A stretch of 10,984 nt of DNA from Vulcanimicrobiota bacterium (GTDB taxonomy: Bacteria; Vulcanimicrobiota; Vulcanimicrobiia; Vulcanimicrobiales; Vulcanimicrobiaceae): the NCBI GenBank assembly GCA_003133025.1, contig PKZK01000011.1, forward strand, positions 1 to 10,984, in the 5' to 3' direction. The position numbers and the translations under genes are program-made. The notes beneath the pieces are model-generated. The model searched no databases and had not been told where the DNA came from. It saw nothing but the letters and a program-made list of their open reading frames with translations. The number at the start of each line of letters is the position of its first letter. The stretch's first letter is position 1. Shown piece after piece: positions 1 through 10,661 of this stretch.

Positions 1-48
1 GTGCTACCCGGCTTCGTCCTCAACCTGGCCGCAATTTTCGCCCGCTAG
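1..48 (+). CDS. 3' end (partial, runs off window start) of a Uma2-family (PD-(D/E)xK, DUF820) endonuclease gene
   Basis: Frame 1 reads VLPGFVLNLAAIFAR-stop(TAG 46-48), the typical Uma2 C-terminus. It aligns codon for codon with VLPGFVLELGPIFND-stop at 3373-3420 (20 of the first 21 nt identical). Confidence 0.8.
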   Translation: MLPGFVLNLAAIFAR

Positions 49-75
49 TCATCTCGCCGCACAAGCCGGCGACCC

Positions 76-248
76 TTCGAACGAGGCTGGGGTAAACCTG
101 CGCCGATCTGAGTATCGAAACCCGGACGAGTTGCTCGCCGAGGCCGATCTCGCCAGCGCAATCGTGGGCGTCATTCGGCAAAACCGCTGGGCGACTCCAA
201 ACGATCCTGCGCCGGCTCGTAGGAGCCCCCCGTCCTCAGCCGCGCCTC
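76..248 (+). pseudogene. Frameshifted remnant of an XRE/HTH_37-type antitoxin-like regulator
   Basis: Manual translation across frames gives FERGWG (76-93), ADL (102-110), YRNPDELLAEADLASAIVGVIRQNRW (113-190) and RLVG...QPRL (to 248). This matches the family pattern SSGNVFADLG.P..EELL.KA.L...I...I....WTQ..AA..LG..QP.VS. No start codon and several frameshifts. Confidence 0.6.
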
Positions 249-761
249 TTACGGCGCCGCCGGAATCGTGAAACGTACCGCGCGGAACGCACTCCTCGCC
301 GGGCACGTAGCGCATTCCACGATCAGCTTTACCGGCACGAAGTTGGGATCGACCGTGAATATCGCGATCTGGCGGGCCGCTGCGCCTTGCAAGATGTGCA
401 GATTGCCCGGATGCAACGACGAACCCCCGATGGCGACCGCGACATCATCCTTGTCGGCAAGCGTATAGCTCATGAGTTCGGTGAAGTCATCCGTACTGCC
501 GTTGCGCAGGAGCATGGTCAACTTCATGACCTTCTTGCCGCCGGACGTGTTGACGTAGTCGACGTCTTCCTTTGCGGTCGTGACGTTCAAGGAACTGAAC
601 GTAATCCGCACGACACCGTTGAAAATCGTGTCGCCCAATTTGCCGGAAAGCGCCTTAACTTGGTTGGCGCCGCCGGGGACGGGCGTGCTGGTTGCCGCGA
701 TGGCGGCCACGGGCATGAGGGCGAGGGCGGCACATACGAGCGAGCGACGGATTTGGTTCAT
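249..761 (-). CDS. Secreted hypothetical protein, 170 aa; possible DUF4352-like Ig fold, C-terminal CxxC
   Basis: The true start is ATG 761 (MNQIRRSLVCAALALMPVAAIAA, a signal peptide), inside the longer 249..1205 ORF. Shine-Dalgarno AAGGAGA at 774-768; ATGA overlap with the upstream ORF stop. The mature part is beta-strand rich and ends VKLIVECATCP...FTIPAAP. The fold call is inference. Confidence 0.8.
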   Translation of the reverse strand: MNQIRRSLVCAALALMPVAAIAATSTPVPGGANQVKALSGKLGDTIFNGVVRITFSSLNVTTAKEDVDYVNTSGGKKVMKLTMLLRNGSTDDFTELMSYTLADKDDVAVAIGGSSLHPGNLHILQGAAARQIAIFTVDPNFVPVKLIVECATCPARSAFRAVRFTIPAAP

Positions 762-982
762 GGAAGTTCTCCTTGCGGGAAGCGTGCGCTCGGGGCGTCC
801 CCGAGGCACGGCGGCGGGGTGGCCAGCGCAGCGTCGATGCAATCCGCCATCTCGCGCGACCCGACCACGTAAAAGGTCTTTCCCGACGCGACATCGCGGA
901 CTGATCCGCGCCACGGCACGGCGACATCGTCGTTCCGCCACATGCGGATCAGGAAGACGCGTTCGCGGTGAGGACTCGGCAC
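758..982 (-). CDS. Small hypothetical protein (74 aa) with FLIRMW...WRGSV.DV.SG motif
   Basis: GTG start 6 nt after a TAAGCT -10-like hexamer; its TGA overlaps the next ATG. The sequence resembles the small '(S/Y)YLLRLW...WRxSLE...TGE' hypothetical proteins I recall next to BTAD/TPR regulators (from memory, not searched). Confidence 0.7.
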   Translation of the reverse strand: MPSPHRERVFLIRMWRNDDVAVPWRGSVRDVASGKTFYVVGSREMADCIDAALATPPPCLGDAPSARFPQGELP

Positions 983-1020
983 GCCCCGAGCTTAGCGCAC
1001 CGGCGTGCGCCCAGCGTGCG
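983..1020 (-). promoter_or_regulatory. Putative leaderless promoter with 11-bp-periodic direct repeats (activator site)
   Basis: Minus strand: CGCACG(1020-1015) ctggg CGCACG(1009-1004) ccggtgcgc TAAGCT(994-989) cggggc GTG(982). It overlaps the last codons and stop of the TPR gene. Confidence 0.6.
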
Positions 1021-1963
1021 CGCTGTCCGCGATTGCCCGGCTTACGTCGATCGCCCGGAACGCCTGGCGCGTCGCCCCGGCCGGCACCAGCTGGGCAAAG
1101 CGCTCGAGCGTCGCCCGCGCTTCCCGTCGAAACTCGGCAGCCGCCCCAACATCGCCGCCGGCGGCAAAACCGGCCGCCGCCGACCACAGACAGTAATGCG
1201 GCCAAAACGCGTTGCGCAGCGCATCCGCGTCGAGCGTCGCAAGCTCGCGGGCGGCGGCCAACGCCTCGTCGTCGCGGCCCGCGGCGACCAGCGCGTGGAT
1301 CAGGTCCGAGACGTCGTCGGCGAAGTCGGGCAACTCCTGGATCGCGCGTCTGATCGCCAGCCCGCGCTGCATCAGTTCGATCGCGTGGTCGACGTTCCCG
1401 AGCGCCCGCTCCGCATTGCCCAGATTAGCCAGCGCCGCGGCCTCGAAGGCCGGAAAGCCGATTTCACGGGCCATCGCGAGCCCTTCGGAGGCAAACCGCT
1501 TCGCCTCCACCGGTGCTCCGATTCGGAGTTGCACGAAGCTCGCATTGACCGCATTGGCAACGCTCATCCGTCGTTCCCGTACGATCTCCAGTAACGCGTT
1601 GGAACGCTCGATCACGGAGAGCGTAGCTTCGAACAGACCCAGACGCATCAGCAGTGCCGCCTGATTGGTCAAGAGCGTGGCCAGTCCGCGCTTGTTGTCG
1701 CTCTCGGCAAAGAGGGCTTCTGCCAACGCCGCTTCGTCGATGGCCGTGTCGAAGTCGTCGAGTCGCGCGCTGGTCACGGCGATGCGCGCGTGCGCTGCCG
1801 CTTGCAGATTCCGATCGCCGGTCGCGGTCGCAATGTCCAGCGCCTCGCGCGAAAGCTCGCGGGCTTCGGCGTAGCCTTGCACGAGCAGCGCGGCCACCGC
1901 CGCCGTCGTCAGCGCGCGGGCGTGGATCGTGCGATCGGAAAGAGAAGAAGCCCGGTCGCGCAT
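992..1963 (-). CDS. Tetratricopeptide-repeat protein, 323 aa; probably the C-terminal fragment of a larger BTAD/STAND(AAA)-TPR regulator (possible pseudogene)
   Basis: Repeated ~40-aa MalT/TPR_12-like helical repeats (e.g. EAAALANLGNAERALGNVDHAIELMQRGLAIRR). The ORF starts mid-repeat with no Shine-Dalgarno, and has no DNA-binding or P-loop domain. Confidence 0.75.
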   Translation of the reverse strand: MRDRASSLSDRTIHARALTTAAVAALLVQGYAEARELSREALDIATATGDRNLQAAAHARIAVTSARLDDFDTAIDEAALAEALFAESDNKRGLATLLTNQAALLMRLGLFEATLSVIERSNALLEIVRERRMSVANAVNASFVQLRIGAPVEAKRFASEGLAMAREIGFPAFEAAALANLGNAERALGNVDHAIELMQRGLAIRRAIQELPDFADDVSDLIHALVAAGRDDEALAAARELATLDADALRNAFWPHYCLWSAAAGFAAGGDVGAAAEFRREARATLERFAQLVPAGATRQAFRAIDVSRAIADSAHAGRTPVR

Positions 1964-1993
1964 GGAGCTAGGTTCTCGGGCTCTGCCGAGGCG

Positions 1994-3001
1994 TCAATAC
2001 ACCGGTCCGACGCCTTGCACCGTGATCGAGCCCGACGTGACGTGCACGTTCTTGGCTTTGAACGTCGTCGGGTCGATGCGCCAGAGGCCCGTCCCGCTTG
2101 CTGCGAAGCACGCGTGAGACGCCGGGTCCACCGCGAGGTTGTAGGGTTCGGCGATATTTCCAACTGACGCCACGGTCGCATACGTCGACGCGCTGATCGC
2201 CGTGACCCCATTCCCTGTTGCCAGGTAGATGAGTTGCGATGCAGGGTCGAACGCAATGTCGTCGGCTTCGCTGTTGAGAGCGATCCGTTTCACGAGCTTT
2301 TTCCCCGCGACGCTCACCACATCGAGGTAACCGGTGAGGTCGGCAAGGTACAGCAGTTTCCCGTCGCTCGAGACGGCGCCGGCCATCGGGAATTCGGGCA
2401 GCGACACGTCGTACTTGAAGGCAAACGTCTTCGCATCGAAAACGTCATAGCCGCTACCCTCGATCTCGTACAACTCGTTACGAGTCGGCGAGGCCACGAG
2501 CAAGTGGTACCCCAGGGTAAAGCCCCCGAGGCCGGCCGCAGACGCCTCGAGCGCACCGGTCGCAGCGTTGACCACGTAGTCGTCGCTCTCCCCGCCGACG
2601 TAGAGCGTCATTCCATCCTGGCTCAGCGCAATCGCTCCGGTAAAATCGCCGTTGGGCAGGGTGAAGAAGTTCGTGGCCGCTCCCGTCCGAGGATCCATCG
2701 CGAACACGATGCCCGAAGCGTTCTCCTCGATGGCATAAACGAGCTTGGTGGCGGGCGACGCCACGATGGCTATGGAGTCTTCGTTGCCGTTCTGCGACGG
2801 CGGCATCTGCTGCTGCGACCGGACCCGCCCGTTCGCGGCGTTTCCGATCGTGAGTTCGGCCGGCTGGCCGCTACTCTGCAGGGCAAAAGCCACGAGATCG
2901 CCGTGGCCGAGCGTGGCTGCGCCGACGGTGGCGGAAGGGACCGAAGCGGTACCGAGCAGCACCGCCATCATGGTCAGGGTGGCGAATGTGGGGCGTTTCA
3001 T
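1994..3001 (-). CDS. Secreted YncE/YVTN-like beta-propeller protein, 335 aa
   Basis: Signal peptide MKRPTFATLTMMAVLLGTASVPSA; ~40-aa blade repeats (IVASPATKLVYA, IALSQDGMTLYV, LVASPTRNELYE, AVSSDGKLLYL, IAFDPASQLIYL, LAVDPASHACF). Confidence 0.85.
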   Translation of the reverse strand: MKRPTFATLTMMAVLLGTASVPSATVGAATLGHGDLVAFALQSSGQPAELTIGNAANGRVRSQQQMPPSQNGNEDSIAIVASPATKLVYAIEENASGIVFAMDPRTGAATNFFTLPNGDFTGAIALSQDGMTLYVGGESDDYVVNAATGALEASAAGLGGFTLGYHLLVASPTRNELYEIEGSGYDVFDAKTFAFKYDVSLPEFPMAGAVSSDGKLLYLADLTGYLDVVSVAGKKLVKRIALNSEADDIAFDPASQLIYLATGNGVTAISASTYATVASVGNIAEPYNLAVDPASHACFAASGTGLWRIDPTTFKAKNVHVTSGSITVQGVGPVY

Positions 3002-3039
3002 GGCGCTATCGTATCAGCCCGCCGTTCCGGGATCGTCCC
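3002..3039 (-). promoter_or_regulatory. Putative leaderless extended -10 promoter with 11-bp-periodic direct repeats
   Basis: Minus strand: GGGACG(3039-3034) atccc GGAACG(3028-3023) gcgggcTGa TACGAT(3013-3008) agcgcc ATG(3001). TGn-TAnnnT lies 6 nt before the ATG; there is no Shine-Dalgarno. Confidence 0.65.
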
Positions 3040-3054
3040 AGCCCCGAGAGCCCC

Positions 3055-3420
3055 CTTGAGTCGAACGAAGGCTTGGAGCTACCCGACTCATCCATAAAAG
3101 CGGCAGACGCTGCCTGGATTCTCCTGGAACGTTGGCGACGACTCAGCAAGAACGAGCGGGCGTCCTTTGCCCCAATCTGCCCCGACTTTGTCAGTGAGCT
3201 ACGCTCCGCCGGCGACAGCATGTCGGCCCTGCGTCAGAGGATGGCCCTGTACCTCGACAACGGTGTACGCCTTGGTTGGCTCATCGACCCATATGCGCGA
3301 CGCGTCGAGATTTTCCGTGCCGGTCGAGAAGTCGAAGTGCTGCTCGACCCCGCAACGGTCTCCGGCGATGACGTGCTACCCGGTTTCGTCCTCGAGCTCG
3401 GCCCCATTTTCAACGACTAG
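3055..3420 (+). pseudogene. 5'-truncated Uma2-family endonuclease
   Basis: Homology begins at LESNEGLELPDSSIKAADAAW and continues PICPDFVSELRS...YLDNGVRLGWLIDP...SGDDVLPGFVLEL. The N-terminal third of a Uma2 protein is missing, and the called ORF start (2986) overlaps the divergent gene and its promoter. Confidence 0.8.
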
Positions 3421-3471
3421 ATAAGAGCGGCATCAAGGTACCTTCCGACTATTCGTCGACCAAGAGCCACT

Positions 3472-4296
3472 GTGAGCGAGCCTCTGAGTGCGATCCATAC
3501 CGATTTCGGCGCGGCTTTCAAGGGGCCGCGCCAGATAGCCGACGGGCCGCTCACGATAACCATCCGCCCAAAACGCCTGGGCGACCTCGATGTCGCCGCC
3601 GACGTACGCCTCGCCGACCCCGATATTCCGTCGTGTGAATTAAGGCTGCCCGGAGCGGTCGCTCCCGGCCTTCACCCGGTCTGGATCGCCGAAGCTACCT
3701 TTGCGCTCGAAGGCGGCGAACCGGGCTCGCGCGTCGCGTGCGCCCTCATCGGAAACCCGGCGGAGGCGAACACCTGGGACCTCGCCGGCTCCGTCGAGGT
3801 CGGCGGCGTGGCCGAATTCTCCGGGAAAGACGGCTCGGCCGTTACGGTTCCGTCCGGCTGGGGACCCGGCGTGTACGCTGCCTGGATAGGCCGCGACCAC
3901 GCCGGCGCGAAGGTGGCGCTCGCACTCGATTTTCGCGTGCTCCTCAAACCCGTGCTCGGCGAGATCGCACTCGGCGACGCGAGCGCCAAGCCGATCGGCC
4001 CGCTGCAGAATGCGGACCTCGAAACGCTGGGCGTGTATCTCAGCGTCGTCGCAGCGGACAAGGTGCCGAGTTATTTACGCGACGGACCCGGCCGCGAACC
4101 GGAACGCTGGCTCCGTCTCGATTGCCGCACCGCCGATGCCGACCACTTCGCCGAGCCGAACATCATCGGTTACGACCGCGAAGGAAACGAACGTTTCGTA
4201 CCCGTCGGCGGAGCCGGCGACGTATCGTACACGCCGCTCGATGGCGAACCGTACACCCTCGTGCTCCGCTACGTCTCCGATCTGCAGGTGCTCTGA
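3472..4296 (+). CDS. DUF4241-like protein with C-terminal extension, 274 aa
   Basis: Motifs LGDL....VRLADP, VAPGLHPVWIA, RVACA and PSGWGPGVYAAWIGRDHAGAKVALALDF match the DUF4241 pattern (CDP, PPG.YPV, SG.GDG.Y..Y.G.D..G......DF). GTG start with weak AAGAG upstream. Confidence 0.65.
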   Translation: MSEPLSAIHTDFGAAFKGPRQIADGPLTITIRPKRLGDLDVAADVRLADPDIPSCELRLPGAVAPGLHPVWIAEATFALEGGEPGSRVACALIGNPAEANTWDLAGSVEVGGVAEFSGKDGSAVTVPSGWGPGVYAAWIGRDHAGAKVALALDFRVLLKPVLGEIALGDASAKPIGPLQNADLETLGVYLSVVAADKVPSYLRDGPGREPERWLRLDCRTADADHFAEPNIIGYDREGNERFVPVGGAGDVSYTPLDGEPYTLVLRYVSDLQVL

Positions 4297-4320: not shown

Positions 4321-5910
4321 TTACGAGTCGTCGCCCCCGTTTTCGGTGCCGCCGGTCTTCGCTTGCCGGGGCTTTGCCGTGGCCTGGTAGGTCCAGTCGT
4401 AATCGAAGCGAGCCTGGAAGTATGCGTTGACCTGCGCGCTCTCGATGATCACGCCCGCGTCACGATTGCGCAGCACGCCCGCACCCGACCAGTTTTGGCT
4501 GCTCACCACCGTCCGGACGCCGTCGACGAGCATCCCCTTATTGTGCACGTTGTTCTGAATGCGAACGTGAGCGCGATCGACGAGCATTCCGGCCTCTTGC
4601 ATCAGTTCGAGGTTCTCCGACTGCTGGTTATTGCCGAGGATGATCCGCGTAACGATGGCCTCGTTGTGTTGTACCCTGGCCAACGCCGCGATCAGGTCGG
4701 CAAACTTGGGGTCGGCGGCAAAGGAATTGATGTACTGCAACTGCAGGTCGAAGGAACGCTGCGTCCCGTTGATCAGGTCGAGTATGGCATCGACGTAGAC
4801 GCCGGCATCCGGCGTCAAGAGCGGCGTCACGGTGACGCTCTCGGTGAGCGTGATCGGCCCGACGAACTCGTCGATTGGCGATGCGGCCGGCGGCGGGGGC
4901 GGCAACGCCTCGACGATCGCATGCGCGCGCGCGGCATTGGCATTTTCCGCCTGAGCGACGTCGAAGTCGTGCTCGATGAAGCTCGCGAACCATGCGGCGA
5001 GCTCTTGGCTGAAGAAGACTACATGCCAATCGCGATCGCTCTTGCGTGCCAATGTCTTATCCGGGTTCGTCCAGTCGAACACGGGCTGGTTGGAGTTATT
5101 CCAGTTGCCCGACGAGATCCACACGCCGACGGTCGTCCGACCGATGTCGCGGGCCGAGACCTTGATATGGTAGGAAGTCTGGAAGATCGGCGTACCCCCG
5201 TCGGGGTCGCTCGGGGTCAGCGCCCATGTTTGCGTAAACGTGCTCCCGAGGGCCGAGGTCAATTTCGCGACCGTCTCTTCGTCGGTCTCGTCGGCAGTGG
5301 GGTTTTTCGGCGGGTGGTCGAGCACGAGCTTGAAGGGCTTACCCTCGAGCGACGTAGCCACGGTCTGCTCGATGTGCGCCGATGTGAAGTCGTACATCGC
5401 GGTCGTCAGCGACGCGCTCGTCGCTTGGATGAATGCTTCCAGAACGCTCCAGCCGTTATCCGGGCTGCAGCTACAGATCATCGTTACGTTCGTTAGTTGT
5501 ATGGGATCGTAGTTGGCGCCCGGCGGCGGCGTGTAGACGATGCCCGGCGCGGCCTCGACCGGCACGGCAAGCGGCGCGACGCCTTCACGCAAGAGGACGA
5601 GTCCGGGAAAGTCGTCGGGAACCGATTCGGCGAGCGAGAAGCGCGCCTTATCGGCGAAGGCGGCTGGTTGCGTGAACTGCATGATCTGCGCCGGAGTCGC
5701 CATGCGTACGTCGATGGGAAAGCCGCCGAGACTATCGGGCACACTGGCTAACGCGACGTTTGGATCGGCGATGAGAACGACGGCTCGAGTCTGTGTCGGA
5801 TACCCGTCTTCATCCAGCATGAATCCGGGGCGCGCGGCGAGTGCGCCGGTGGCGCGGAGAGCGTCGATGTTCTGAGAAATGACCGGTATGATGTCGCCGA
5901 AGTAAGACAT
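4321..5910 (-). CDS. Phospholipase D-superfamily protein with two HKD motifs, 529 aa
   Basis: HIKVSARD...SSGNW and HNKGMLVD...SSQNW motifs. Preferred start is ATG 5910 (MSYFGD) with GGAGA 5 nt upstream, rather than TTG 5940. No signal peptide. Confidence 0.9.
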   Translation of the reverse strand: MSYFGDIIPVISQNIDALRATGALAARPGFMLDEDGYPTQTRAVVLIADPNVALASVPDSLGGFPIDVRMATPAQIMQFTQPAAFADKARFSLAESVPDDFPGLVLLREGVAPLAVPVEAAPGIVYTPPPGANYDPIQLTNVTMICSCSPDNGWSVLEAFIQATSASLTTAMYDFTSAHIEQTVATSLEGKPFKLVLDHPPKNPTADETDEETVAKLTSALGSTFTQTWALTPSDPDGGTPIFQTSYHIKVSARDIGRTTVGVWISSGNWNNSNQPVFDWTNPDKTLARKSDRDWHVVFFSQELAAWFASFIEHDFDVAQAENANAARAHAIVEALPPPPPAASPIDEFVGPITLTESVTVTPLLTPDAGVYVDAILDLINGTQRSFDLQLQYINSFAADPKFADLIAALARVQHNEAIVTRIILGNNQQSENLELMQEAGMLVDRAHVRIQNNVHNKGMLVDGVRTVVSSQNWSGAGVLRNRDAGVIIESAQVNAYFQARFDYDWTYQATAKPRQAKTGGTENGGDDS

Positions 5911-6014
5911 GACGTCTCCAATCGCGCAAGCGATACTCAAGGACGGTCTGCGAAAGTGGAATGCAGGTCGTCAATTGCGGGTCACCATCTTCGGCGCCTG
6001 CAGTAAAGCGGCCC

Positions 6015-6125: not shown

Positions 6126-7655
6126 TCAGAGTCGCGCCAGAAATGCAGCCGCACTCTCGGCGATGCGTTGGCGCTCGTCGGCCGCGAACTTATCGTAAGT
6201 CCGGACCATTTGCGCCATGCGCGGATTCCCTCCGATCCTAGCGCGATTCCGGTTGATGAAATCCCAGTACAGCGCATTGAACGGACAAGCTCGCTCACCG
6301 CTCCGCTGCTTCACGTCGTAATGGCACGACCCGCAGTAGTTCGACATCCGGTTGATATACGCTCCGCTAGCCGCATAGGGCTTCGATGCCAGCAAGCCGC
6401 CGTCGGCGAACTGGCTCATACCCACAGTATTCGGCAACTCGACCCACTCGTACGCATCCGCGTAGACGCTCAGATACCACTCATGCAGCGCGTACGGGTC
6501 GATCCCCGCGAGCATCGCGAAGTTCCCCGTCACCATCAAGCGCTGGATGTGATGCGCGTAGGCAAGCTCTTTCGTCTGCGTCACCGCGGCCCTAACGCAA
6601 GCCATGTCAGTCTCGGCCGTCCAGTAGAACTCGGGCAACGCTCGCGCGTGGCTGAAGAAGTTGCTCCGCTCGTACCCGGGCATCTTCAGCCAATAGATCC
6701 CGCGCACGTATTCGCGCCACCCGATGATCTGGCGGATGAATCCCTCTGCGGCGTTCAGGGGCACCTTTCCCGCACGGTACGCGACCTCAACCTGCCGGCA
6801 GACGCGCAGCGGATCGAGTAATCCACAGTTGAGATACTGCGCGATGACGGAGTGGTAGAGGAATGGCTCACCGCGCAACATGGCATCCTGAAAGTCGCCG
6901 AACCTCGGGAGCGCTTCGTCGACGAAGGCCGCAAACGACGCCTCCGCGTCGGCCCGCGTAACCGCTACACCGAACGGCAATAGGTCTCCGAAGTGATCGC
7001 CGAACCGCGCCTCGACGAGTGCCAACACCTCTTCGGTGATGGCATCGGGTGGACACCCGATGGGTCGAGGCATGAAGAGCGACGGGTCCGCCGGCTTGCG
7101 GTTCTCGCTATCGAAATTCCACGTACCGCCCGCCGGCTGATCGCCGTCCATGAGAAGCCCAGTCCGGCGGCGCATGTCGCGATAGAAGTACTCCATGCGC
7201 AACTGCTTGCGCCCGGCCGCCCAAACCGCGAACTCACCATGCGAGCACAGAAAGCGATCGTCCGGCAGAATATCGACCGGCAGCCCAAAGAGGTCGCGCC
7301 AGCTACGGATCATCTCGGAAACGCGCCACTCGCCGGCTTCCGTGACGACGATTCTTTCCGGACGGTGCTCCGCGACGGCGTCCGCAAGTTGCTCGGTGAA
7401 GCTCGCCCGATTCTCTGCCGCGCCGAGCCTCACGTAGTCGACACTCCATCCCCTCGCCCGCAAGTCTTCGGCAAAATGCCGCATGGCGGAGAAGAGAAAT
7501 GCGATCTTTTTCTTGTGGTGGCGCACATAGGTCGCTTCATCGTGAAGCTCGGCCATCAGGACGCGGTCTCGTGACGGATCTGCCGCCGACAAGCTGGAGA
7601 CAGCGGGCGTCAGTTGATCGCCCAGCACGAGGATAAGATTGCGAACCCCAGTCAT
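6126..7655 (-). CDS. phrB: FeS-cluster bacterial cryptochrome/(6-4) photolyase (FeS-BCP, PhrB/CryB family), 509 aa
   Basis: LGDQL, HHKKKI, MEYFYR.MRR, WNFD.ENR, YAHHIQRLM..GN, DAYEWVELPN and KPYAASG.YINRMS motifs, plus four Fe-S cysteines (DMAC, YCGSC, ACPF). Colinear with Agrobacterium PhrB as I recall it. Confidence 0.95.
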   Translation of the reverse strand: MTGVRNLILVLGDQLTPAVSSLSAADPSRDRVLMAELHDEATYVRHHKKKIAFLFSAMRHFAEDLRARGWSVDYVRLGAAENRASFTEQLADAVAEHRPERIVVTEAGEWRVSEMIRSWRDLFGLPVDILPDDRFLCSHGEFAVWAAGRKQLRMEYFYRDMRRRTGLLMDGDQPAGGTWNFDSENRKPADPSLFMPRPIGCPPDAITEEVLALVEARFGDHFGDLLPFGVAVTRADAEASFAAFVDEALPRFGDFQDAMLRGEPFLYHSVIAQYLNCGLLDPLRVCRQVEVAYRAGKVPLNAAEGFIRQIIGWREYVRGIYWLKMPGYERSNFFSHARALPEFYWTAETDMACVRAAVTQTKELAYAHHIQRLMVTGNFAMLAGIDPYALHEWYLSVYADAYEWVELPNTVGMSQFADGGLLASKPYAASGAYINRMSNYCGSCHYDVKQRSGERACPFNALYWDFINRNRARIGGNPRMAQMVRTYDKFAADERQRIAESAAAFLARL

Positions 7656-7964: not shown

Positions 7965-10661
7965 TTGAAGCGACTGTCGCTACAGCGTCTGCCGGCTTTG
8001 CTACTGTTAATCGCAGTAGCTGGAGGGACCGCGCTCGTCGGATGGTCGGGGCGAACTAGTGCCGCCGTTATATCCGGGGTGTCGCCCAACGGCGGTGTAC
8101 TCAGCGTTCGTGGCCGTAACGCGGCGCTGGACATTGGCTACGCCGCCAACGACGCGACCGCAGGCGCGTCGCTCTCGCTTACGCTTGAAAGCGCGACATC
8201 GGGCATACCGCTCACGCCGAGCGGAGTGCCCGTCCTAGCGGCGCAGGTCGATGTCGGCGGCGGCCGCATCGTTACGTTTACTGACCTGCCACCTACGTCG
8301 ACGCTCCGGTCTGCCGCGCTGCGAGCGGGCGTCGATTATTCGATGTACTCGTTCGTAGGCGGCAAGCCCGTCGGGGTTCCGTACGATGCGGGCGTGCCGC
8401 TCGAGGGCTCGCTGCGCTTCCCGTCGCCGCTCAGAAACCTCTCGCTCTCGCCGGGCACGCCGCTTTTGATCGTGGTCGTCGCCGGAGCGAAGATCGCGCA
8501 CGAACCTGCAGCAATGACGACCATGCCGCTCGCGGCCGGCGGTGCGACCTTGTCGCTGCCGGAATACGCTTCGTTCGGCGGCTCTCTGGACTATGCGGCC
8601 AACGACGGACGCCGCAACAATCTGACGCTGGTGAACACCGGCAGCCTCAACGCGACAAACGCCCTCGTACCGCCGCTCGAGAAGACCCTGCTGTTTCTGG
8701 AACTGCATGTCGACGGAACCCGGGCAGTTAGCTTCGCGCCGACCGTGTCGGGCCCGGGACTGATGTTCGCGTCTGCGCTGCCGAACCTGAGGTTGCACTC
8801 ACCGCTCCTAGCTCCGGGCGTCGTCTACGACGCATTTGTTTTCGCCGGCGGCCAGCTCGTCGAAACGGGCAGCGCCGCAGCGTCGGCGAGTGGGGCTTTG
8901 ACGCTTCCGTCTCCGCTCAGCGATGCCCGAGTCGCGCCGGGAATGCCGATCGTCATCGAGCTCGCAACCGCACTCGCGTCGCCCCAGAGCACACTCGACG
9001 AATCGACTGGCGAGCCGTCGCTTCCCGAGAAAAACAACACGCAGAAACTCGCGCCCGCGGGCGGCACGATCCGAGCGATTAGCTACGGGGGATTCCAAGG
9101 CACGTTCCCCTACGCGCCAAACAACGCGCCGTCGGGCGTGACGTTGACCCTGACCAACAGCGGTCAGTACGACCAGTTCAACGCCCCGACACCCCCCGGC
9201 ACGACGGCGCTCCTCTTCCTGGCCGCCCAGGTGAGCGGCACGCAGACGATCGAGTTCGGCACGTCGTCGCTCACCGCATCGATTTCGTCGAGCACGCTAG
9301 TTGCCGGAACGTCATACACGCTCTATCTCTACGAGGCGGGCACGCAGACCGGCCTGGTCGAGACAAGCGCTGCCACCAAGGGCGGCATGGTGAAGTTCTC
9401 GACCCCGCTGCAAAGCGTCTCGATCGCGCCTGGAACACCGTTGGTCCTGGAACTGGTCACAAATAGCGCGCCAACGCCCACTCCGACTCCGAGCCCGACG
9501 CCGTCGCCGACTCCGAGCCCGACGCCGTCGCCAACTCCGAGCCCGACGCCGTCGCCAACTCCGAGCCCGACGCCGTCGCCAACTCCGAGCCCTACTCCCA
9601 GCCCCACTCCAACTCCGACGAATGCGCCGCCGGGTCAGTTCACGCTGTATAACCTGCCATCGCCGCTCGCCGACCCTCTAGGAATTACAGTGGGCTCGGA
9701 CGGGAACCTATGGTTTAGCGGCGGCTACACCTATGTGGGCTCGGTGACGACAGTCGGCGAGTTTAATGCGTATAAGCTCCCAACAGGGAGTTCTAATCCC
9801 GAGGGAATCACTAGCGGTCCGGACGGAAACCTTTGGTTCGCGCTAACGGGCTCTAGTCAGATTGGAGTGATTACCACAGGCGGCCAGGTTACGATTTATC
9901 AGATCCCGACTGCGGATAGCCAACCGGTTGGTATCACTTCCGGGCCTGATGGTAACCTGTGGTTCACAGAATTGAACGTTTCGAAGATAGGCAAGGTTAC
10001 TACATCAGGACAGTTTACCGAATATACCATTCCTACGGCCTCCAGTTATCCGCAGTTCATCGTGACTGGGCCCGACGGCAACTTGTGGTTCACGGAGGCG
10101 TCTGCAAACAAGATTGGCACCGTCACGACATCCGGTCAGTTTACCGAGTACCCGATCCCCTCTCCGAATAGCTACCCGCTCGGGATAGCCTCCGGGCCCG
10201 ATGGCAATATCTGGTTTACTGAGCCGAACACCAACAAGATCGGCAAAGTCAGCACCTCCGGCCAATTCACCGAGTACTCGACTCCGACGGCGAACAGCGG
10301 TCCGCAAGGTATCGCGGCCGGGCCAGACGGCAACGTTTGGTTCTGCGAAGGAAACGTCGGGAAGATCGGTGTCGTGACGCCGGGAGGCCAGTTCACGGAA
10401 TATCTTGTGCCGGGTGGAGGGTTTCCGTTTCAAATTGCCCTTGGGCCTGACGAAGCAATGTGGTTTACTGCCGCGAGCAATCCCAGTGGCGAAGTTGGTC
10501 GCGTTACCACCGGATTGACTCAGCAGCTGAGAAAACAGACGCACCTGGTAACGCCCGTTCCGCGACGCGCCGGCTTCTTGGAAAATGAGCCGCCGCGGGC
10601 TGCGCTAACCGCGATTCTTGGGCCGACGAGTCCGCTCATCCAACTCTTGGATCCCAGTTGA
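7965..10661 (+). CDS. Large secreted/surface protein, 898 aa: three repeated beta-rich domains, Pro/Thr/Ser linker, Vgb-like seven-bladed beta-propeller
   Basis: TTG start with GGAG at 7953-7956; N-terminal signal peptide; three ~140-aa repeats; (TPSP)n linker; seven 42-aa G(P/S)DGN(L/I/V)WF-type blades at about 9633-10514. Confidence 0.9.
9486..9592 (+). repeat. In-frame 24-bp tandem repeat (about 4.5 copies) encoding TPSPTPSP
   Basis: Unit ACTCCGAGCCCGACGCCGTCGCC(G/A) starts at 9486, 9510, 9534 and 9558, with a partial copy at 9582. Confidence 0.95.

Follow-up and report, generated by a model that had tools for sequence, protein, structure and literature searches.

Paired GNACG repeats at two promoters of a Vulcanimicrobiota gene cassette are probable sites of large SARP-type activators

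The window analysed here, 10,984 nucleotides from the start of contig PKZK01000011.1 of a Vulcanimicrobiota bacterium, contains a minus-strand cassette in the order site B, propeller gene, TPR frame, site A, small gene and 170-aa gene, where sites A and B are two promoter-like sequences. The small gene (758..982, minus strand) encodes a 74-aa protein with a predicted leaderless GTG start, whose family is characterised by FxxRxW...WRG and corresponds to no Pfam or NCBIfam family. It is followed by the gene of a 170-aa protein (249..761, minus strand) with a signal-peptide-like N-terminus and a Shine-Dalgarno-like AAGGAG of its own, homologues of which occur in 10 related cassette loci. Upstream of the small gene lies a 323-aa frame (992..1963, minus strand) equivalent to residues ~829-1149 of a ~1,150-aa Tyr-helix SARP-ATPase-TPR activator. 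This TPR remnant is 52% identical to full activator relatives, with similarity beginning near window position 1990, and the relatives keep the order activator, small gene and exported proteins including the 170-aa homologue. The product of the first cassette gene (1994..3001, minus strand), 335 aa long, is beta-propeller-like and has a signal-peptide-like N-terminus; its ATG start at site B is predicted to be leaderless, and a single distant homologue was found among 150 other genomes.

An assembly artefact at the junction of the propeller and TPR frames was considered and rejected, as DNA contigs from two further studies (runs X3 and X6) run across it. Four runs supplied RNA contigs that overlap portions of both frames, one contig spanning the junction; positions 433-1440 and both promoters are uncovered, so that these contigs give no information on start sites, on strand or on whether site A is silent. 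The ATG of the TPR remnant aligns with a Met of a full-length relative and its 323 codons are open, and all four strain differences within it, among the 40 of 95 differences listed, are synonymous. The remnant may have been retained as a sensor-domain protein in its own right.

The cassette is flanked by two Uma2-family 3' ends (1-48 and 3050-3420, both plus strand), which are alike over ~48 nt. The right-hand one is a 5'-truncated gene (3050..3420, plus strand) that matches Uma2 model positions 59-171, the first ~58 being missing; it abuts site B and stands outside the regulon. Two runs show a joint from position 3372 to position 1, and insertion or recombination may take place at Uma2 genes. 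Further along, the window encodes a phospholipase-D-like protein (4321-5940, minus strand), a photolyase-related (DPRP) protein (6126-7655, minus strand) and a protein of 898 aa that combines a PT-rich linker with a Vgb-like propeller (7965-10661, plus strand), and a scan of the window found no strict box before any of these three genes.

Re-reading of the sequence confirmed both strings exactly as first described, together with the identical distances of 5, 9 and 6 nt claimed for the two promoters. At site A, two CGCACG half-sites (1015..1020 and 1004..1009, minus strand; -38..-33 and -27..-22 if +1 is the start codon) precede the -10 element TAAGCT (989..994, minus strand) and the predicted leaderless GTG (982-980, minus strand). 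The site overlaps the last codons and the stop of the TPR frame, and the TAA of its -10 element doubles as that stop codon. Site B consists of GGGACG (3034..3039, minus strand), GGAACG (3023..3028, minus strand) and an extended -10 element TG-A-TACGAT (3008..3016, minus strand; -10 proper at 3013-3008) before the predicted leaderless ATG (3001-2999, minus strand). The TG at -15/-14, which may add basal activity to site B, is absent from site A. Neither ACGCTG (site A) nor ACGATC (site B) in the -35 slot is a canonical -35 element, and no consensus sigma-70 promoter was found in window positions 1-3500. Both sites, like those of relatives, are direct repeats with an 11-bp period. The proposal of the sequence-only reading that the repeats replace the -35 element agrees with the lack of a canonical -35 and with the comparative tests below.

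Enrichment was assessed with the consensus GNACG-N6-GNACG-N9-TAnnnT and with a stricter form that adds N6-RTG. The two matches in the window, where 200 shuffles gave 0.01 on average, prove little because the pattern was drawn from these same two sites. In the genome from which the window derives (3.35 Mb, 66% GC, assembly 80% complete), spacing 6/9 gives 7 matches, or 5 without the discovery sites, compared with 0-3 (mean 0.9) in 62 other spacing cells. Across 151 genomes of the order there are 435 matches against 190 for the reversed pattern and 177 with a 7-nt spacer. The N6-RTG form yields 87 against 0 within the class and 88 against 4 reversed in 201 genomes of the phylum, which bears out the expectation that the pattern is more frequent before start codons than in controls. 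Selection on geometry, as first suggested, is likewise supported by the excess of the canonical spacing over reversed and off-spacing controls. In aligned boxes there is little information in the spacers and no sign of a conserved third repeat, and a G that was not selected for is kept at -37 in 47 of 50 boxes and at -26 in 41 of 50. The leading S of the originally described SGNACG, on the other hand, proved uninformative (G19 C18 T9 A4, n=50). A position-weight hit on contig C68 was set aside as background, there being no ORF behind it.

The linkage of the boxes to regulators was followed in 80 regions fetched around the best matches of the small gene (the 13 weakest were left out), which yielded 89 small-gene hits in 85 loci. 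A SARP N-terminus lies in the fetched DNA for 83 of the 89 hits. The activators form a family of ~1,150 aa with wHTH-BTAD-ATPase-TPR architecture, and in our genome Pfam recognises BTAD together with AAA_16 and TPR domains in each of three intact paralogues. Walker A, GxxGxGKS/T, is conserved across 64 aligned activators. Their profile matches AfsR structures (8HVR, 8K60, 8JKE; E about 1e-17 to 1e-18), an invariant Arg being aligned in this match with AfsR R87, and it also matches EmbR structures. The ATPase is assigned by Pfam to AAA_16, not NB-ARC. An FxHH is, judging from its position in the activator consensus, plausibly placed; a preprint describes an F/Y-HD latch in an NB-ARC-clade domain (bioRxiv 10.64898/2026.09.02.748808). 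Outside the window on the same contig (L007:7611-10493; G000 C248) lies a LuxR-type large ATP-binding regulator with AAA_16 and GerE.

Boxes with five or six of the six ACG letters at canonical spacing precede 53 of the 89 small-gene hits. The earliest in-frame start follows the -10 element at exactly 6 nt in 38 of these 53 and at 6-7 nt in 41. No canonical box was found at the other 36 of the 89, which belong mostly to two altered-helix activator clades, and in the two clades with the Arg at AfsR position 88 replaced there is no canonical box or a variant with 10-bp period. Activators with the helix KLR[M/A][N/S]L.D (L083, L084, L090, L093, L096, L097, L100) stand beside CGAACG-N4-GGAAYG-N10 sites with this shorter period, and the two C207 activators of our genome have helices similar to this type. 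In the clade with the helix RLRST.SD (L087, L091, L104, L106, L107, L110, L117, L119, L124 and kin), the small gene lies ~50 nt upstream of the activator gene and no ACG box was found; its operator may have a different sequence.

Presence and absence across the 151 genomes point to the same regulators. Boxes average 0.96 per genome in the 46 genomes that have neither activator nor small gene (controls 1.39 and 1.20), which is background level. In the 14 that lack the small gene but have two or more activators, the average is 3.86 (controls 1.36 and 1.07), the absence of the small gene being based on a 5-row profile for most genomes and on a recheck with a 33-row profile in five. One genome without the small gene, G106, has nine activators and 15 boxes. 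Motif count follows activator count with a Spearman rho of 0.63, compared with -0.09 and 0.11 for two controls, values that are overstated because kin genomes are not independent; the relation persists after removal of G000 (our genome) and G130. The SARP/BTAD-type activator named in the sequence-only reading thus gains support from the linkage at 83 of 89 hits and from this distribution. An exception is genome G026 (96% complete, two contigs), in which there are five strict boxes, yet no large activator was found. One region of it, L186 (G026:C1:1666000-1682000), has four Tyr-type boxes clustered before exported-looking genes, two of them divergent and overlapping. Recent loss of an activator, as in the window, would explain these boxes, and so would a second box reader.

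In the 80 relative loci the canonical spacing accounts for 44 additional boxes, whereas each of five off-register spacings gives 0-3. An ORF lies downstream of 39 of them, and by a crude rule 31 of these 39 ORFs have signal-peptide-like N-termini, compared with 263 of 822 in the background. The top profile hits in our own genome, including C142, C111:4059, C207:78245 and C18:12450, all precede exported-looking proteins. The genes behind the boxes are thus the small gene and others whose products mostly look exported. An unnamed ~120-aa exported family with DGxLPxYP has predicted leaderless starts behind Tyr-type boxes in several loci (G000 C142:4750, L046, L052, L055, L067, L080, L081, L186). 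In our genome the distance from TAnnnT to ATG peaks at 6 and 7 nt (59 and 60 cases, against 10-43 at other distances), and because of this peak leaderless starts look common there. The leaderless character of the boxed genes, which is deduced from spacing, fits the 38 of 53 boxed small genes mentioned above and extends less well to the other boxed ORFs, of which 15 of 39 start at 6-7 nt.

The third base of the half-site varies with the clade of the adjoining activator. Boxes of small genes next to Tyr-helix (ELRRYLYL) activators have C or T in 58 of 58 half-sites, those next to His-helix activators have G in 24 of 24, and those next to Asn-helix activators are mixed (G11 A4 T1). The pattern recurs in further boxes, tested at 42 sites after exclusion of two whose locus has no activator: C/T in 43 of 44 half-sites for Tyr-helix, G in 18 of 18 for His-helix, and A14 G6 T2 for Asn-helix activators. 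Genomes G014 and G055, with His-helix activators and neither Tyr clade nor small gene, have G as the sole third base, and G106, in which most activators are of the Tyr type, has C/T in 23 of 30. Two genomes depart from the clade rule (G037 and G046), each with three near-background matches. All Tyr-helix activators form a single clade on one branch, independent-pairs tests find 1-2 pairs (p = 1) and at most two pairs on starred branches, and one column outside the helix predicts the base as well as helix residue 89 does. For these reasons we interpret the pattern as an association with clade and not as a proven residue code; a residue-level recognition code was considered and dropped, being inseparable from ancestry in this data set. 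The suggestion that differences in the first bases encode paralogue specificity consequently stands in part: the clade association is borne out, also at 42 held-out promoters, and the residue code, with no more than two independent pairs, is not.

This association allows predictions on what the two sites answer to. The top 22 matches of the TPR remnant are all Tyr-helix activators, in agreement with the C/C of site A, and site A and the C142 site are Tyr-type boxes of our genome. Site A is likely orphaned because the local gene of the Tyr clade is a TPR remnant and no Tyr-clade DNA-binding domain was found in the 80%-complete assembly of this genome; it is probably either orphaned or served by a full copy in unassembled DNA. 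Both half-sites of site B are identical to those of the box beside an Asn-helix activator in locus L111, and from its G/A we predict that intact Asn-helix paralogues encoded elsewhere, on C18 or C111, act on site B in trans. Conservation does not confirm site B, since a search around the single distant homologue of the gene behind it turned up no box.

The small protein occurs in 70 of the 151 genomes. Our genome has four paralogues of its gene, and the three outside the window adjoin wHTH-BTAD-AAA_16-TPR genes. The family comprises 3,295 clusters at 50% identity and has look-alike clusters in Chloroflexota; no match was found in plasmids, and searches gave no significant Pfam or NCBIfam family, with nothing coherent in Pfam for 33 members. 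Five longer proteins with the domain N-terminal to globin, rhodanese or unnamed proteins were discounted, as they look like read-through into the next gene. A structural model (pLDDT 86.6) predicts three strands and one helix, and a fold search with it returned generic matches (best Z 4.9; AP2, at Z 3.6, tied with HicB-like and dsRBD folds). A complex prediction that paired the protein with its cognate activator (residues 1-930, the last ~220 being omitted) scored 0.01 and speaks neither for nor against an interaction.

We consider it highly probable that sites A and B are activator-dependent sigma-70-type promoters whose GNACG pair is bound by a large SARP-type activator. A pair of GNACG half-sites, offset by one helical turn (11 bp), would stand in for the -35 element and would be bound by two copies of the wHTH, BTAD, ATPase and TPR activator. 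By analogy with AfsR, nucleotide binding would release the DNA-binding unit of the activator, and the released units would sit side by side on the repeats and recruit RNA polymerase, with transcription beginning at the start codon or one base before it. Binding, activation and start sites are here inferred for the boxes, whose geometry, enrichment and linkage to activator genes are observed.

OmpR-family winged helices bind 11-bp repeats at the -35 position, and it is conceivable that a widespread OmpR/PhoB-type regulator, or another activator present throughout the order, reads the boxes and that the SARP genes are mere neighbours. Our genome has 11 Trans_reg_C matches above the cut-off, G026 and site A have boxes without a cognate SARP, and AfsR and PhoP have a common site according to a review (PMC10972967). 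Against this, the 46 SARP-free genomes, classed by activator and small-gene content, have no excess of boxes, and the box type tracks the clade of the neighbouring SARP at 42 held-out promoters; we regard a reader of this kind as improbable. The small beta-beta-beta-alpha protein might itself bind DNA through an AP2- or integrase-like sheet and autoregulate via the repeats, given that its own promoter is boxed, that conserved Arg, Trp and Arg lie on predicted strands and that AP2 (Z 3.6) is among its weak fold matches. The fold matches are, however, generic up to the best Z of 4.9, loci with altered-helix activators keep the conserved residues of the small protein and lose or shift the box, and boxes are enriched where activators are present and the small gene is undetected (mostly by the 5-row profile, with the 33-row profile in five genomes), all of which makes a small-protein binder very unlikely. 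As boxes persist without the small protein, we favour a role as feedback modulator over one as DNA binder.

Chance must also be weighed: in DNA of 66% GC, words rich in ACG occur often, each genome should yield roughly one match from background, and site A lies within the last TPR codons and has its stop codon in common with them. The sites might be look-alikes, by-products of TPR codons or remnants of a single duplication. At the level of the motif class this is refuted by 88 against 4 matches in the phylum; in addition, the box is not wholly inside activator coding sequence in 14 of 24 tandem loci, boxes also occur in divergent spacers, and the spacers within boxes have low information while the unselected G is kept at -37 and -26 (47/50 and 41/50). 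We give such an origin of the two sites hardly any credence.

Binding by large SARP-type activators, our preferred reading, can be extended into a wider scheme, which we judge doubtful as a whole. The Eremiobacterota secretome would be under paralogous ATP-switch SARPs with targets readable from one or two helix residues (Tyr C/T, His G, Asn A/G at -36/-25), the small beta3-alpha protein would be a dedicated, auto-induced feedback modulator shared with Chloroflexota, and the local Tyr switch, stripped of its DNA-binding and ATPase parts, would have been reduced to a sensor-only TPR protein newly brought under the promoter of another paralogue (site B). In an order whose members, from peat and soil, are mostly uncultured, a SARP-type box with its own sequence marks ~3 promoters per genome, and the boxes give a computable regulon of exported proteins with clade-matched predictions. 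The system also points to an unnamed small-protein family, and its mechanism will be familiar to specialists in Streptomyces regulation. A literature search that covered few subscription journals and no supplements found no paper that treats the box, the small family or the SARPs of Eremiobacterota.

Among known systems, PhoB/OmpR promoters with a pho box are alike in that a winged-helix activator on 11-bp direct repeats replaces the -35 element. The regulators linked to the boxes here differ from these in having BTAD, ATPase and TPR and no receiver domain, and the motif follows the SARP activators and not the order as a whole.

The closest resemblance is to AfsR and its afsS promoter in Streptomyces coelicolor, where repeats with an 11-bp period likewise overlie a weak -35, at the same distance from the -10 element. 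The AfsR box is described as spanning -40..-19 in two 11-bp repeats, of which the first 8 bp each are contacted, with base contacts at -38 and -36 and release of AfsR by ATP (PMC10936776). With +1 assumed to be the start codon, the hexamers here end at -33 and -22, the same edges as the contacted AfsR blocks, and the -10 element is at -12..-7, which is the AfsR register. The wHTH, BTAD, nucleotide-binding and TPR domains are likewise common to both systems, and in both an adjoining small gene carries the box or is a direct target. The sequences are nevertheless distinct: compared with the afs-box consensus CGTT(T/C)ATCGNN, as given in the review (PMC10972967), GNACG agrees only in the A at -35/-24, and ACG is partly a selection rule here. 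AfsR has NB-ARC in place of AAA_16, its targets are antibiotic pathways instead of exported proteins, it belongs to another phylum, and several paralogues per genome with clade-linked boxes are a feature of the present system. A difference from AfsS is suggested for the small protein by its lack of any Pfam or NCBIfam family. As box sequence, ATPase subtype, targets and phylum differ, the boxes do not constitute an AfsR regulon.

Pathway-specific SARPs such as ActII-ORF4, DnrI and PimR, in the same review (PMC10972967), also act on direct repeats overlapping the -35, and the 10-bp-period site of PimR is comparable with the N4/N10 variant beside one activator clade here. They differ in being small SARPs or SARP-LALs within biosynthetic clusters, often with three heptamers, and that review calls SARPs exclusive to actinobacteria. 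The system described here is likely a known promoter design with a new box sequence in a little-studied phylum.
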